From contig OZ024756.1 in NCBI GenBank assembly GCA_964016885.1, positions 31,062,001 through 31,126,000 on the forward strand: a DNA stretch of 64,000 bases. Direction: 5' to 3'. Under the pieces are notes generated by a model that worked only from the letters and a program-made list of their open reading frames with translations, was not told the DNA's origin and did not search any database. Of this stretch, positions 6,778-58,751 are shown piece by piece; position 1 is the stretch's first letter; every line of letters begins with the position of its first letter. Position numbers and translations under genes: made by a program. Origin of the DNA: Eledone cirrhosa. Lineage: Eukaryota.

Positions 6778-7496
<719 letters not shown>

Positions 7497-7499
<3 letters not shown>

Positions 7500-7878
7500 A
7501 AAGTTCTATTTAAAATTGTTGGGATACAACAAGTAAATATTTTATAACTGATATAAAGCACTCGACAAGTTTTTGGAGTAGATATACGATATTAATAAAT
7601 GGAAACTATATTTATAAAACCATATTTATTTCATTATACATATTTCAGGGATACCAAATTAAAATATGGTATGCCTTCATCAGACAAAATACAATATATA
7701 AACAGTTTTATAAATAATTTTGACGTACCCTATTAAATGCAACCATTATTATAAACTGTTTATATATTGTATTTTGTCTGATGAAGGCATACCATATTTT
7801 AATTTGGTATCCCTGAAATATGTATAATGAAATAAATATGGTTTTATAAAAATATAGTTTCCATTTATTAAAATCGTA

Positions 7879-7880
<2 letters not shown>
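7497..7880 (-). mobile_element. HHR-bearing fold-back element (family B): arms ~7583-7712/7750-7880 plus ~86 bp tail 7497-7582
   Basis: Inverted arms around a 37-bp spacer, (TA)n on both sides. Homologous to 47846-48304. Confidence 0.85.
7770..7834 (+). ncRNA. Type I hammerhead ribozyme motif (mirror copy on minus strand 7627-7691)
   Basis: tattttgt CTGATGA aggcataccatattttaatttggtatccct GAAA tatgta TA atgaaata. Confidence 0.85.
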
Positions 7881-7909
<29 letters not shown>

Positions 7910-10016: not shown

Positions 10017-10238
10017 AGGTTGGTGGGTTGGCAGTATCGGTATTGGGACGGACGCTATGCTTTGCAACGTAGAGTTACACCCCTTTATGACCTGACTTCA
10101 AATCCTGCCCAGGTTAACATTGCCTTGCATCCATATGGGGTCGAAAAAATAAAGTACCAGTCACACACTGGGGTCGATTTAATCGACTTTCCGCTCCCCA
10201 AAAATTATTGGTCTTGTGCCTATGTAAGAAACCAATAT
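10017..10238 (+). mobile_element. SINE family 1 (tRNA-derived), diverged full-length copy
   Basis: ggtgggttggcagtatcggta (A-box-like), ttcaaatcc (B-box-like), gccttgcatcc..ggggtcga..aaataaagtaccag, tail ggtcttgtgcc..agaaac. Confidence 0.8.
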
Positions 10239-20289: not shown

Positions 20290-20356
20290 TATTTTATCTG
20301 ATGAGGAGGTACTGTTAAAGATAGCTCAGAACCTCTGAAATATGTATAATAAAATA
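20290..20356 (+). ncRNA. Type I hammerhead ribozyme motif in a solitary element (~20232-20500) next to (TA)n
   Basis: tattttat CTGATGA ggaggtactgttaaagatagctcagaacctct GAAA tatgta TA ataaaata. 8-bp stem I, stem II ggaggt/acctct. Confidence 0.85.
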
Positions 20357-30039: not shown

Positions 30040-30078
<39 letters not shown>

Positions 30079-30081
<3 letters not shown>

Positions 30082-30238
30082 TTCTGGCTTCGATCGGGGC
30101 TAGCCACAGTTAGTAAGGTACTCAATACATTAGTAAAGTGTAAACATCATGTTTAATATAGATAGCTCTGGACTTTCCTTATGATTTCGTTTGAATGAAA
30201 CTGTTCTGGTCCCGGAGAAGGCATTTTTATATTAAACA
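30079..30238 (-). mobile_element. Family E diverged fold-back copy: tail on minus strand, degenerate HHR-like motif on plus strand at 30172-30222
   Basis: ccacagttagtaaggtactcaataca..tttaatatagat is the reverse complement of the 58302-58356 tail. ttc CTTATGA tttcgtttgaat GAAA ctgttctg GTC ccggagaaggc. Confidence 0.7.
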
Positions 30239-30297
30239 TTATATATATATGTTTATATATATATATGTTTATATATATATATGTTTATATATATATG

Positions 30298-35100: not shown

Positions 35101-35750
35101 ATAATTGTTTCTACTTTTGGCACAAGGCCAGCAATTACCCAGTGTATTACTGGTACTTTATCTTATTGACCCCGTAAGAATGAAAGGCAAAGTTAACCTC
35201 GGAAAGGTATATCATAATGATATATTAAATATCTCACAATGTAGCATTTTGTGAATTGTTGCTTTGCCAACAGAATATGACATTATTATTTATTTTAGGT
35301 GTTATTAGCAGTATTGGTAGAGCGTCGTACAACATACTTTGCAGCATAGAGTTACGGCCATTTACGTTATGTGTTCAAATCTTACGGAGGTTAACTTTGA
35401 TAACTTTGATAGGTTTCAGCCAGGTCATGTTTAACTTAATAGTACCACCTGGCTTTGTTTATATAATTTGTCTCTTTACGTCCAGTGTTCAAATCCATCC
35501 GAGGTCAACGTTAGGTTTCAACCCCCCGGGATCGAAGAAATAAAGTCCTAGTTAACAACTGAAGAACAATGTAATTCTATTTTTCCCTTACCCAAATTGC
35601 TGTCCTTGTGGGAATGCTAAAAAGAATTAGTATTTAATTTTTATATTTCTATATAATTTTTAAATATATTACCAGTAATGCACTGGAGTCGATATAATCG
35701 GCTTTCCCCAAACATTTGTCACCTTGTGCCTAAATTAGAAACATTTATTT
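35101..35750. mobile_element. Cluster of SINE family 1 fragments in both orientations
   Basis: 35101-35203 minus 3' half. 35297-35400 plus head. 35480-35630 and 35670-35748 plus fragments. Confidence 0.75.
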
Positions 35751-39070: not shown

Positions 39071-39287
39071 TAATAAAAATAATAATAATGATAATTAAAA
39101 AAATTATTATTATTATTATTATTATTATTTCTGAATTCAAATTCCCCCCCCCCCCCCAAAAAAAAAGAAGTTTTGCATTTCATCCTTACGGGTTGATAAA
39201 ATAAAGTAGAAATACCAGTAGTTAACTGGAGCCGAGTTGGTGAAATATTATCATTTCTATTACTAATATTATTATTACTACTCCAAC

Positions 39288-39480
39288 AGGGCGGTGGATT
39301 GGCAGTATCGGTAGAGGGTCGGGCGCCATGCTTTCTAGCATAGTTACGTCTCTTTACGATCTGAGTTCAAATCCCGCCGAGGTTAACTTTGCCTTTCATC
39401 CTTACGGGGTCGATAAAATAAACTACTGGTATTACACTAATATAATTGCTGGCCTTGGACCAGAAGTAGAAACAATTATT
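39288..39480 (+). mobile_element. SINE family 1, full length
   Basis: gggcggtggattggcagtatcggtagagggtcgg..ctgagttcaaatcccgccgaggttaactttgcctttcatcc..agaaacaattatt. Confidence 0.9.
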
Positions 39481-39934
39481 ACTACTCCAACAACAACAAC
39501 TTTATTTATTTTCCACAAGGGAGTATTAATAATGATGATAATGATAACAATAAGATTAATAATAATTATTATTATTGTAGCAATAATGATAATGAAATGT
39601 TAGCAAAAATAATGGTTTATACAAATATAGACCTCGTAACGTAATGGAAAAAAATAAGATGGAAGGCAAAATTAATGTCCAATAAATTTGCGATAATCTA
39701 ACTTTATATATATTTGTTGACAATGCAAATAATATATCCTAAAATAAACTAAAATACCATTAAGTAAATACAATGCAGCAACCAGCTACATATAAAATAT
39801 AAAAAATTAACATGAAACTACACTTCTCACTAACTATATACGTATATATACACACATACATATATATATTCATTGATATATATATATACATATATTCATT
39901 GAAATATATATATATACACACACACATATATATG

Positions 39935-39967
<33 letters not shown>

Positions 39968-40037
39968 GTGTGCATTAATGCGTGCAGAGCAATCCAAGAA
40001 ATTAAAACGAAGATTAATGCAAAATTTTGCAAAATTC

Positions 40038-40089
<52 letters not shown>

Positions 40090-40165: not shown

Positions 40166-40194
40166 TTATATATATTTATCTATATATATTTATA

Positions 40195-40273
40195 TTGGGT
40201 TGTAACATAAATTCCCGCCGTTATTATAAAACCTCTTAATAAAAGAACGGCTGGAATTTATGTTACAACCCAA
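40195..40273. mobile_element. 79-bp Tc1/mariner-type micro-MITE
   Basis: 28-bp TIRs ttgggttgtaacataaattcccgccgtt / aacggctggaatttatgttacaacccaa, TA on both sides. Confidence 0.75.
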
Positions 40274-40349
40274 TATAGTTACGTGTGCATGAATGCGTGC
40301 AGAGAAATCCAAGAAATTAGAACGAAGATGTAAAATATTGCAACATCCA

Positions 40350-40720
40350 TATATATATAATATAGAAATGGCTTCTACGGGACTAGAACTGTTTCATTCG
40401 GGAGAAATTATCAGGAAAGCCGACTATCAATGTTATATGGTGGTGCTTTTTCTGGTGGTAGTAGAGGGTGGTGATTGGAATGGGTGGGGGTCATTGGCTG
40501 ATGGATTTAAAGAAAGGGGATTCTTTAAATCCATGTGTGGGTGTGTGATTGTAGACACCTGGCCATTTTTACAGACCTTACCAATAAATACCCATTGTTT
40601 GCTTGAAATGAATGAAACTTATGAATTAGGAGGGCCTCTCGGTGTGTTTGTGTTTGTCTTAAAGTACTAGGTGTGAATTTACTTCTGCCTTTGTATCACT
40701 ATTTATGTTTCTCTAAATAT
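40350..40720 (-). mobile_element. Family E pLTR-like segment with degenerate HHR motif (40370-40421) ending at (TA)n
   Basis: Minus strand ggctttc CTGATAA tttctcccgaat GAAA cagttcta GTC ccgtagaagcc, homologous to 58256-58300. Segment 40479-40532 is repeated inverted at 40724-40775. Confidence 0.7.
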
Positions 40721-40776
40721 TGTTTTTAAAGAATCCCCATTGTTTAAATCCATCAACCAATGATATCCACCCATTT

Positions 40777-41077
40777 ACAGCCTATTACAACGCGGAGTTA
40801 GCTCATAGAGGCGTCTCGCAATTAATTTCTTACTCCCCTCCTAACACCAACAGCAATAGAAAAAGAAATCATGCTAATAGAAAAATGATTTGGTTCTTCC
40901 GCGCTTCTCACTCAACGTTAAGTTAAAACTAATGTAGGTAAACGATTGTTAGCTCTCTTAGATAGGCACTTTCCCATAGGACATAAATACCATTCAATCT
41001 TTAACAGACACAGGGTGAAACTCGGATACTCCTCTGCAAAGAATATGAAGGCCGACGTCACCAACAGACATCACTAA
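40777..41077 (+). pseudogene. Penelope-like element polyprotein fragment (RT thumb/linker before the GIY-YIG domain), frameshifted
   Basis: Translation AYYNAELAHRGVSQLISYSPP..RKRNHANRKMIWF, a frameshift near 40900-40925, then KTNVGKRLLALLDRHFPIGHKYHSIFNRHRVKLGYSSAKNMKA (40925-41053). Matches my recalled PLE motif IWFNPP.S.NV.TN.GK.FL.L.DKHFP..H..HKIFNR..VK.SYSC..NM; no database search run. Confidence 0.75.
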
Positions 41078-41210
41078 GAGCAGAACTCCACCAGGATGCA
41101 CTGGAGTCTATTTACTCAACTTTCCTCTTTCTCCCAAAATTGCTGATCTTGTGCTTAAATAACAAAAAAAAACATTATCATTTTCATCATCATCGTCATC
41201 ATCATCATCG

Positions 41211-41764: not shown

Positions 41765-43247
41765 AGCCGTGAATTAGCAGAGTCGGTAGAGCATCGGACT
41801 CAACACCTTCCAGCATTTTTGTCCGGTACTCTTTGCTCTGAGGCTTAAATCCCGCTAAGACCAGCTTTCATTTTAATCTTTTCATGGTCGCTAAATAAAG
41901 TACAATCCGACTGCTGACGGATTTGTAGAACTAATACAGCAAAATACCTGTAGGAATTAAAAGGTTTTATATTGTGTTTCTAACGCCAATTCCCATTGCA
42001 GTTTAAGTTTGCCTTTAATCATTGCCAAGTCGATAAATTAAATAACATTTAAGTACCTGGCTTAATTTAACCAACTGTATCTTTCCATCCATAATATCTA
42101 CCCATTTATAGGTGTTAGAGATTATTATTATTAACTTATTGAGGGCGGTGGATTGGCAGTATCGGTAGAGCGTCGGACACTCTACTTTGCAGCATAGTTT
42201 CGGCCCTTCACGTCAGGTGTTCAAATCAAATCCCGCCGAGGTTAACATTGCCTTTCATCCTTACGGAGTCGATAAAATAAAGTACCAGTAAAATAAAGCT
42301 GGGCCCGATTTAATCGGCTTCACTTCCCTTTCAAATTGCTGGCCTTGTGCCTAAATTAGAAACAATTATTTCTTACTTATTCCCCTTTTCAATTAATCTG
42401 GTATGTGATTATTTCTACAAAAACCTTCATTTCCATAGAGTTAGATTTTATTAAAAAAAAAAAACCTCCTGCTAAACGGAACACTATGTGGAGCCTGAAT
42501 GAGTTGCGTTTTTTCACCTCTATAAATAGCAGCAAAATCTTACTCAAATCCCAATCTTAACAGAATCAACGACGCATTGTATCGTGTTTTCATACATATA
42601 TGATGTCTAAAAATAAAACATAACAGTAATAGTTAGGTTTTTTCCCCCTTCATTATGTCTGGCTCTTCGACTAATCAACGGCAACAAAAATAATTAACAC
42701 TTCTCTTTGAAACGAGCAGAGCATCCATCAAACTTGCACGTTACCAATATCAACACTAATCCAATTGTAAGTCACTGGGGGAGGGGGCCTGTTTTATCCA
42801 CTTTCCTCCTCTTTACAAATTGCTGGTCTTGTGCCAAAAGTAGAAACAATTATTAATCAAATCTAATCTAGAAATGTAGAAACAACTATTAATAATATCC
42901 ACCTCCTCCTCCTCCTCCTCCTGAAACAGCAGCACGTCCCGCCTACGTTGTCTTTCTTTGTTGCAATGTTTTCTCACAAATCTTCATTCCCTCCGAGAAA
43001 TAAATTGAATCCTAATTTCGATAATGGTTTTTATAACTTTGGCCATCATTATAATTTTTTTATATTGGCAGTATCGGTAGAGGGTCGGACGCCATGCTTT
43101 GAAGTATAGAGTTGCGTCCTTTACGATCTGAGTTCAAATCCCGCCGAGGTTGACTTTGCCTTTCATCCTTACGGCGTCGATAAAATAAAGTACCAGTAAT
43201 GCACTGGGTAATTTGCTGTCCTTGTGCCTAAAGTAGAAACAATTATA
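41765..43247 (+). mobile_element. Cluster of SINE family 1 copies (41765-41900 degraded, 42142-42370, 42770-42855 fragment, 43065-43247)
   Basis: Head ggattggcagtatcggtagag, B-box gttcaaatcccgcc, central ctttcatccttacgg.gtcgataaaataaagtacc, tail gtagaaacaatta. Confidence 0.85.
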
Positions 43248-47845: not shown

Positions 47846-48304
47846 TACGATATTAAACAAATGGAAACTATATTTATAAAACCTTATTTATTTCATTATA
47901 TATATTTCAGGGATATCATATTAAAAATATGGTATGCCTTCCTCAGACAAAATACAATATATAAACCGTTTTATAAATAAATTTGACATACCTTAAACAG
48001 TGCAACTTCCATTTAAAAAGTTGATTTGGTACCAAATCAACTTTTTAAATGGAAGTTGCACTGTTTAAGGTATGTCAAATTTATTTATAAGACGGTTTAT
48101 ATATTGTATTTTGTCTGAGGAAGGCATACCATATTTTTAATATGATATCCCTGAAATATATATAATGAAATAAATATGGTTTTATAAATATAGTTTCCAT
48201 TTGTTTAATATCGTAAACCTACTCCAAAACCTGTTGAGTGCTTTTATATCAGTTATAAAATATTTACTCGTTGTAACCCAACAATTTTAAATAAAACTTT
48301 TGCA
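47846..48304 (+). mobile_element. HHR-bearing fold-back element (family B): 185-bp-arm palindrome 47846-48215 centred on ggtacc, plus ~88 bp tail
   Basis: No spacer, ~2 arm mismatches, (TA)n on both sides. Homologous to 7497-7880. Confidence 0.9.
48107..48172 (+). ncRNA. Type I hammerhead ribozyme motif (mirror copy on minus strand 47889-47954)
   Basis: tattttgt CTGAGGA aggcataccatatttttaatatgatatccct GAAA tatata TA atgaaata. Confidence 0.85.
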
Positions 48305-54030: not shown

Positions 54031-54170
54031 GACAGAAAGTGAGGAAGACAGAGAAAAAGATAAAAATTGAGATATGCGTACATATATGCGTACACATGTG
54101 TGTGCGTGCGTGTATATTTCTGTATATAATAATAAAAATAATAATGATAATAACAACAACAGCAATAATA

Positions 54171-54359
54171 ATAATTGTTTCTACTTTAGGCACAAGGCCA
54201 GCAATTCACCAGTGCATTACTGGTACTTTATTTTATCGACCCCGTAAGGATGAAAGGCAAAGTCAACCTCGGCGGGATTTGAACTCAGATCGTAATGGGA
54301 CGTAACTATGCTGGAAAGCATGGCGTCCGACCCTCTACCGATACTGCCAATCCACCGCC
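54171..54359 (-). mobile_element. SINE family 1, full length
   Basis: Reverse-complement match to the consensus. Confidence 0.9.
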
Positions 54360-57825: not shown

Positions 57826-58177
57826 TCATCATCATCATTTCATCATCATTTTATTTTACGTCCGCTTTTTCCCTGCTTGCAAGGGTGGGACGGGAACTGA
57901 TGCTGGCTTGATTTCTACAGCTGGATGCCCTTCCTAACACCAACCTCATTTACAGTGAGTGCTGGGTGCTTTTTTGCCGTGGCACCTCCACGACCACTTT
58001 GCAGTGGAATGATAGGGACCCCAGCCCCTATCATCTCATTTCTACAGCTGAGTAAACTGGAGCAATGTGAAATAAAGTGTCTTGCTCAAGGAAACAACAC
58101 ATCACCCGGTCTGAGAATTGAACTCACAACCTTTCGATTGCAAGCCCAATGCTCTAACCACTAAGCCATGTGCCTCC
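57826..58177 (-). mobile_element. SINE with family-2 tRNA/CORE-like head, different 3' body (gttggtgttaggaagggcatccagc) and (GAT)n tail
   Basis: Head ggaggcacatggcttagtggttagagcattgg..gagttcaattctc..ttccttgagcaagacactt. Tail (CAT)n on plus strand at 57826-57849. Confidence 0.8.
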
Positions 58178-58191
58178 TATATATATATTTA

Positions 58192-58383
58192 TTTAATATA
58201 GATGAGTCTCTACAGGACTAGAACTGTTTCATTCTTTAGAAATCATCAGGAATCTCTGATGATTTCTAATGAATGAAACAGTTCTAGTCCTGTAGAATCT
58301 CATCTATATTAAAACTGTTATACTCTGCTTTGTATTGAGTACCTTACTTACTGTGGTTACCTCCGATTCAACCCGGAATAAAG
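58192..58383 (+). mobile_element. Family E fold-back element: palindrome 58192-58313 plus ~70 bp tail, with HHR-like motif on both strands
   Basis: CTGATGA tttctaatgaat GAAA cagttcta GTC ctgtagaatc at 58256-58300, mirror at 58205-58249. Tail actgttaTACTCTg. TA repeats on both sides. Confidence 0.8.
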
Positions 58384-58751
58384 TATATATATATATATAT
58401 ATATATATATTGCTACCCGAGGATGTTGAGCAGATTTAGACGGGTTTCGGGTTGCCATTTCTAACATCATTAAAAGCCTGTCGGATTGTCCTAATATATA
58501 GTGATGGATTGATGGATGTAGATTTAGTAATTGAATGACACACAATGTCGGATGCACTATACTGTTTCGACAACATGTCATGTGTAGTATGCATTCAATA
58601 GTTTCTCTACTTTCAAAGAATTTCCTTCCTGAAAATTAATTTTTTTTTCAAAATTGGCTGCCCGAAATTATTCAGCTATTTGGAATTGTTTCTCAATTCC
58701 AGACACTGTCTAACTTACATCCTATGTATATATATATATATATATATATAT

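Follow-up and report, generated by a model that had tools for sequence, protein, structure and literature searches.

A frameshifted Hydra-clade Penelope-like ORF fragment and an adjoining inverted arm with a mutated hammerhead in Eledone cirrhosa, likely from one old insertion

We have identified a fragment of a Penelope-like element (PLE) of the Hydra clade in a stretch of 64,000 nt from contig OZ024756.1 of Eledone cirrhosa. This whole stretch is referred to as the window, and all coordinates are positions within the window. The locus at 40365-41074 consists of an ORF fragment that is interrupted by two frameshifts and of an adjoining inverted arm, the hammerhead of which is mutated. It is probably the left part of one old insertion, the right part of which was likely deleted. 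The identification of the ORF fragment as Hydra-clade PLE protein, which was made by sequence comparison, is firm. The derivation of the ribozyme arm and the ORF fragment from one insertion is likely, because their layout fits the published PLE arrangement where an inverted 5'-truncated copy lies at the 5' end beside (TA)n. Judged by its sequence, the copy is a dead relic that would be unable to mobilise anything. The window has a GC content of ~30% and no N, is dense in microsatellites, contains one abundant SINE-like repeat of ~200 nt, and reads as animal non-coding DNA. The features of the locus are as follows.

40350-40364, no strand: short (TA)n run where the inverted arm ends, likely the insertion target
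40365-40435, minus strand: family-E 3' end with type I hammerhead and tail-less short terminus, identified by homology to 30154-30253 and 58185-58311
40436-40724, minus strand: non-coding stretch, by its composition likely the 3' UTR/pLTR of the inverted 5'-truncated copy
40479-40529, minus strand: segment X, overlapping a 14-bp hairpin (40501-40534) and identified by its inverted-repeat match to 40725-40775
40725-40775, plus strand: segment X', the inverted copy of X and start of the sense arm, with its junction at 40724/40725 and abutting the ORF
40777-41074, plus strand: Hydra-clade PLE ORF fragment, from the RT thumb end through the linker to just before CxCx5C, identified by profile match
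41089-41160, plus strand: 3' remnant of the abundant SINE-like repeat, right boundary of the locus and outside the PLE, with matches at 10166-10230, 35678-35735, and 42793-42834

The ORF fragment extends from 40777 to 41074 and is followed by a stop codon at 41075-41077. The peptides that had been read on the plus strand in a preliminary description of this DNA are present. YYNAEL (40783-40800), RKRN (40858-40869), and RKMIWF (40879-40896) lie in one frame, while the downstream peptide from KTNVGK to KLGYS (40925-41032) lies in another frame. The ORF had been described as frameshifted, which is correct, but it is broken twice and not once (near 40897-40899 and 40917-40921), and the short third-frame piece between the two breaks (~40899-40916) had been missed. 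The second frameshift sits at a 5-nt tandem duplication (40917-40926).

The 51-residue piece encoded at 40922-41074 was used as a query against a protein database. It retrieved 895 matches at E<=0.001, the best of them at 5.6e-9, and no protein match at E<=1e-10 was obtained in the same search. All 150 of the matches listed (of 895) returned to the plus-strand bin 40500-41000 when they were compared with the window using tblastn. A profile of 699 positions was built from the full-length match P0052 (rank 52, 713 aa) and 119 relatives, which are the best 120 of 470. This profile gave two matches, at 40916-41080 (E=8e-16) and at 40777-40896 (E=0.0017), and the next-best place in the window scored E=3.2. 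The first of these matches is partly circular, while the second is non-circular because that piece had never been a database query. In a frameshift-aware alignment, 40777-41074 is collinear with profile positions 443-539 of 699 (97 positions), which span the RT thumb end to just before the CxCx5C linker. The earlier placement of the peptide between the RT core and GIY-YIG of a PLE polyprotein thus agrees with the profile and the 895 matches, and the clade is Hydra.

The relatives of the ORF fragment carry both RT core and GIY-YIG endonuclease regions. No RT active site, other RT core motif, or endonuclease was found in the window by the profile search, where nothing else scored below E=3.2, and 40777-41074 is the sole Hydra-type coding sequence in the window. 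A Pfam search with three window peptides gave a single sub-threshold match (E=0.087), and nine candidates, none of them significant, came from a word-indexed search of longer proteins with the 51-aa piece. A continuation of the ORF to the first cysteine of the linker near 41097 was considered and rejected; the spacing would be 21 codons against a minimum of 23 among 111 relatives, and the bases match the SINE too. The SINE remnant that starts at ~41089 occupies the place where the rest of the PLE would be expected.

The locus had been proposed as a candidate mobilising element. In favour of an autonomous locus that moves the window's hammerhead families is its standing as the only Hydra-type coding sequence in the window. 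However, only 97 of the 699 profile positions (443-539) are retained, the reading frame is broken twice, both the RT active site and the endonuclease are missing, and the ribozyme core is mutated (G8A). The proposal of an autonomous locus is therefore given practically no probability; unless this part of the assembly is faulty, the sequence itself excludes it.

The assignment of the ORF fragment to the Hydra clade is based on its relatives and on a published alignment. Craig et al. 2021 (PMC8557442) characterise this clade by RWK, DKT, a CxCx5C linker, and the absence of the CCHH motif, and further by hammerheads at the 3' end and insertion targets of (TA)n. Among the 69 relatives of at least 650 aa within the 120 that were aligned, RWK/R is found in 66, DK[T/S] in 68, DKG in one, [Y/F]RDD in all 69, and CxCx5C in 67. 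The block that the window matches is visible by eye in 9/9 Hydra rows and in 0/9 rows of Penelope/Poseidon, Nematis, or Neptune in the alignment of PMC8557442. The Pfam search of 12 relatives gave no RT match and only two sub-threshold GIY-YIG matches; nothing relevant was found for five more relatives, and a PDB sequence search with a full-length relative gave no match. The RT identity of the relatives thus stands on the published alignment and the motifs. P0052 in the Atlas is among clusters where HTH_animal occurs in 25-38% of members, and GIY-YIG occurs in some lower-ranked clusters. The Hydra clade is thinly sampled, with 27 families in the metadata of PMC8557442.

The inverted arm contains a hammerhead-like motif that runs on the minus strand from 40414 to 40376, with the core at 40414-40408 and predicted cleavage after 40376. 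Stem II has 3/3 pairs, stem III has 3/4 pairs, and the stem I duplex has an energy of -9.0 kcal/mol. Position 8 of the core is A and not G (G8A, at 40409). The conserved C3-G8 pair of the hammerhead core requires G at position 8. Both C3 and G8 are named as core residues that were tested by mutation (PMC11167929). A hammerhead descriptor with one mismatch gave 0-5 hits in each of 20 shuffled windows, which places the motif alone at chance level. The hammerhead at 40414 is therefore accepted on its homology to the other family-E copies. It is 83-84% identical to the intact-core copies at 58249 (minus) and 58256 (plus), where stems II and III are complete, and 76% identical to the copy at 30178 (plus). 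The family-E hammerhead that had been reported on the minus strand is thus real by homology, but its core is mutated and one of its four stem III pairs is broken.

The other searches did not recover this hammerhead. Rfam reported no hammerhead at gathering level in the window, none at E<=10 in 40250-41200, and none among the 150 matches listed of 450 for the whole window. The hammerhead fold at 40414 is not the minimum-energy fold (z -0.48), and no compensatory change was found among the four family-E copies. In the related pair at 58250-58256, the plus copy starts at the catalytic core without its own 5' stem I strand and the minus copy retains 6/7 stem I pairs, so that only the minus copy is predicted to cleave.

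The homology to family E (30154-30253 and 58185-58311; 76-84%) is confined to 40342-40435, so the earlier attribution of the whole 40350-40720 to family E does not hold. The stretch 40436-40724 has no match in the window apart from the inverted copy X', and a comparison of 40435-40724 with five other hammerhead-adjacent stretches gave no similarity above shuffles. Its GC content is 36-49% against 22-23% in the flanks. The arm comprises 310 nt upstream of the hammerhead core without an endonuclease remnant. A candidate endonuclease C-terminus on the minus arm was rejected, since its frameshift-aware profile score of 11.5 compares with a shuffle mean of 11.6, 91/200 shuffles reach that score, and 174/356 window tiles score as well. 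A plus-strand open frame of 100 codons (40368-40670) that is antisense to the hammerhead arm had no Pfam match and was treated as chance.

The ends of family E are either short (55, 61, and 62 nt) or long (128 nt). The arm at 40365-40435 meets (TA)n 55 nt past the first core base, which equals the short end of the family and fits the tail-less member of a divergent pair. The position of the arm end in (TA)n at 40350-40364 is weak evidence alone, as 20% of random sites are equally near (TA)4, and the long-tailed partner expected for this arm is absent. Taken with the neighbouring ORF fragment, we infer that family E is the 3' end of a Hydra-type PLE. The earlier tie of family E to a PLE is retained in this form, and an intact autonomous copy that ends in family E is hypothetical.

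The join between the arm and the ORF fragment is marked by an inverted repeat. The preliminary description had placed it at 40724-40775 versus 40479-40532, and it was found at 40725-40775 (X') versus 40479-40529 (X), with 45/51 identical positions and a score that 0/1000 shuffles reach. X lies 65 nt upstream of the hammerhead core in the sense of the hammerhead (minus), while X' lies in the sense of the ORF (plus) and directly adjoins it. The divergence between X and X' is 12% (6/51 positions). On the plus strand, the A+C content rises from 35% in 40436-40724 to 59% in 40725-41074 (P=3e-9), and the step persists when X and X' are left out (P=1.6e-7). The flip lies at 40725-40729 and the best change points at 40725-40732, with 40728 as the very best, and a step of this size occurs in 0/224 repeat-masked background windows. 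A step of this kind is expected if the two arms are divergent copies of a single A/C-rich strand. There is only one flip, which lies where X' begins, and none at the join between X' and the ORF. By chance, a divergent hammerhead would lie within 400 nt upstream in 4.1% of cases for any family and in 1.0% for family E (computed after the fact), which speaks for a link between the arms.

The inverted repeat is also where the other explanations have to be weighed. The ORF scrap and the family-E arm may derive from two PLE families or two insertions in one TA-rich spot that were merged by template switch or deletion, in which case family E would be a PLE end of another family than that of this ORF. 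The window holds at least four hammerhead families in 64 kb, and a hammerhead as neighbour is therefore no rarity (the 4.1% given above). The join between X' and the ORF is abrupt, with ~440 codons skipped, and the UTR exceeds that of three published Hydra consensuses. Against two sources, X' adjoins the ORF in the same sense and shares 88% identity with the hammerhead arm, and the single composition flip is at the start of X' with none at the X'-ORF join. We consider an origin from two sources unlikely.

The segment 40479-40775 could also be a MITE-like element of its own, with terminal inverted repeats of 51 nt, which inserted between the ORF scrap and a hammerhead end unrelated to it. X and X' do flank a 297-nt unit as terminal inverted repeats would, and another palindromic MITE-like sequence is found nearby (40191-40277). 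But no target-site duplication was found at four boundary settings, no second copy of 40479-40775 is present in the 64 kb, the inversion point would have to coincide with the insertion, and the composition flips at 40725, inside the supposed element. Such a separate element is very improbable.

An assembly artefact that created the fold-back is more improbable still. Assemblies are known to be troubled by complex PLE insertions (PMC8557442), but X and X' differ at 6/51 positions, above what a collapsed or mirrored read would give, and the divergence is graded among four further tail-out pairs of the window (90-99%).

Against the derivation of both parts from one insertion, no intact element that joins the ORF family and family E was found in the window. 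A search of bacterial and archaeal genome contigs, where none is expected, found neither the family-E pattern nor the Hydra protein.

Two side observations concern the left flank of the locus. A direct duplication of ~95 nt (39958-40052 and 40273-40364; 85% identical, 315 nt apart) encloses a long (TA)n and a palindrome. Its second copy (40273-40364) adjoins the hammerhead arm, and it is probably a local duplication. The palindrome at 40191-40277 is 87 nt long, lies in TA sequence, is 83% self-complementary, and is single copy in the window. It is possibly a MITE of the mariner type, which it resembles.

The preferred reading, a single old insertion of a Hydra-type PLE, can be set out in four steps. 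Following established PLE biology, an active Hydra element elsewhere would have made the RT-GIY-YIG protein, which would have nicked a (TA)n tract and started reverse transcription at the 3' end of the element's RNA. The insertion would then have been resolved into two divergent arms by target-primed reverse transcription at (TA)n, namely a 5'-truncated inverted copy that runs from 40724 to 40365 (UTR, hammerhead, and short end) and, starting at 40725, a sense copy. This second step is based on three observations, which are the inverted repeat, the flip in strand composition, and the position of the short end at (TA)n. In the third step, the sense arm would have begun as X', a 5'-truncated pLTR piece, at the 14-bp hairpin. 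This hairpin (40501-40534; -16.2 kcal/mol, z -7.0) overlaps X, and X' begins 5 nt inside it; the point of truncation may thus have been determined by the hairpin. X' is now joined to about codon 443 of the ORF, which may have come about by a template jump or by a later loss of more than 1.3 kb. In the fourth step, the endonuclease, the sense hammerhead, and the long tail would have been lost at the SINE junction. The two frameshifts, G8A, and the 12% divergence between X and X' are signs of decay, from which we conclude that this is an old copy with no capacity to encode a functional protein. More extreme truncations by the same family may account for the short family-E pairs at 30078-30240 and 58192-58384.

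The arrangement itself, an inverted 5'-truncated arm beside a PLE ORF, is already in print, and the locus represents a further family of Hydra type. An inverted 5'-truncated copy at the 5' end is common in PLEs, the tail is often at one end only, and Hydra families insert into (TA)n (PMC8557442). The locus shares with members of the Hydra clade (e.g. Hydra-1_Obim and Hydra-1_Amil) the thumb-linker block with its order, the (TA)n target, and what is probably its own 3' type I hammerhead, which is oriented like the arm. Hydra clade elements carry RT core and endonuclease motifs, whereas the copy at 40777-41074 is without all of them. This layout is also that of Penelope-13_HM from Hydra magnipapillata in the supplement of Craig et al., which has an inverted 5'-truncated copy and an antisense hammerhead at nt 102. 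Its inverted arm has 966 nt and the sense hammerhead at its 3' end is kept, whereas here the arm has ~360 nt and the sense end is missing.

The hammerhead of family E was also compared by eye with those of published Hydra families, a tally that covers Hydra families only and implies no clade specificity of style. As in family E, U precedes GAAA in 17/25 published families and stem III is ACAG/CUGU in 4/25. Loop 3 has 8 nt in family E and 1-3 nt in the listed Hydra hammerheads. The UTR arm has 310 nt upstream of the core here, whereas in three published Hydra consensuses the distance from the stop codon to the core is ~125-180 nt (by eye). The third-frame piece (~40899-40916) is closer by eye to the motif version of Hydra-1_Obim than to the common WFNPP version. 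Hydra-1_Obim is the only published octopus Hydra consensus, and its hammerhead and 3' end differ from those of family E.

Opposite-strand dual hammerheads 100-700 bp apart have been reported, and single motifs were ascribed to truncated PLEs (Cervera and de la Pena 2014, PMC4209133). Compared with the minimal hammerheads in that report, family E has a 4-bp stem III, an 8-nt loop, and U instead of C before GAAA. Animal non-LTR retrozymes are non-coding hammerhead repeats that have been traced to PLE pLTRs (bioRxiv 10.64898/2026.07.22.740005). The retrozymes described there form head-to-tail tandem arrays, whereas family E forms inverted tail-out pairs or single arms, and the present locus includes ORF sequence. 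In Octopus vulgaris, 31 recently active Penelope-like families have been reported with their consensuses kept outside the paper (PMC13282606), so this family may already be catalogued. A search of the literature in a collection with few subscription journals turned up no report of this family or of Hydra palindromes in cephalopods.

The significance of the locus is modest. It ties a dispersed hammerhead repeat to its likely parent clade, adds a Hydra family distinct from the single octopus consensus given for Hydra in the paper that defined the clade (PMC8557442), and can readily serve as a query for recovering an intact element. The short and long ends in the window also offer a direct test of whether the two-start-site model, which has been demonstrated for a Poseidon element (PMC11167929), applies to Hydra.

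The window contains 10 exact-core hammerhead motifs, against one in 20 shuffled windows combined. Four complete tail-out inverted pairs were identified at 6900-7364, 7579-7884, 47846-48215, and 58192-58313, with arms that are 97%, 90%, 99%, and 92% identical, respectively, and a half pair of the same type is at 30078-30240. These belong to three families, lie in or beside (TA)n, and each has one short and one long end. The long ends exceed the short ends by about 70-105 nt, and the tail in them looks 2-3 times longer than the 30-40 bp given in the published description. The pairs with 97-99% identity are much younger than the locus at 40365-41074. The tail-out pairs fit Hydra-type truncated insertions.

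The word YGAGTRC is found in 5/5 long tails (beyond 7364, below 7579, beyond 48215, beyond 58313, and below 30150), 15-40 nt past the end of the inverted repeat, against a background of 0.011 per 80 nt; this tally represents three families and not five independent cases, and the motif was picked after inspection. It is a possible recognition or start-site signal. A YGAGTRC-like word is also visible by eye in the tails of two published Hydra consensuses.

A broader proposal is that the tail-out hammerhead palindromes (five in 64 kb, three families) are more than truncation products and form a self-propagating class of non-autonomous elements moved by Hydra PLE proteins. The locus would then be a captured intermediate of their origin, by hairpin-guided 5'-side truncation/inversion and two reverse-transcription start sites ~70-105 nt apart that are marked by the cross-family YGAGTRC. 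This proposal is speculative and quite doubtful. As to the hammerhead system as a whole, BLAST found no similarity between family E and the other hammerhead families of the window, which have only architecture and motif style in common with it, and the ORF at 40777-41074 therefore does not link them. The PLE origin that had been suggested for the whole hammerhead system is thus supported as a Hydra-PLE origin for family E, while for the other families the support is indirect.

Single hammerhead-like motifs and other repeats were also observed. The motif at 2798 (plus) is 85% identical to the 7000/7264 family, the motif at 20298 (plus) has an exact core, and those at 2187 and 14124 (both minus) have one core change each. 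The copies of the ~200-nt SINE-like repeat are 75-90% identical (e.g. 39250-39486, 42121-42371, and 54166-54359), and a scan of the copies in the window gave no hammerhead motif. A tRNA-like segment at 58111-58168 (minus), which is at Rfam gathering level, adjoins the family-E pair.
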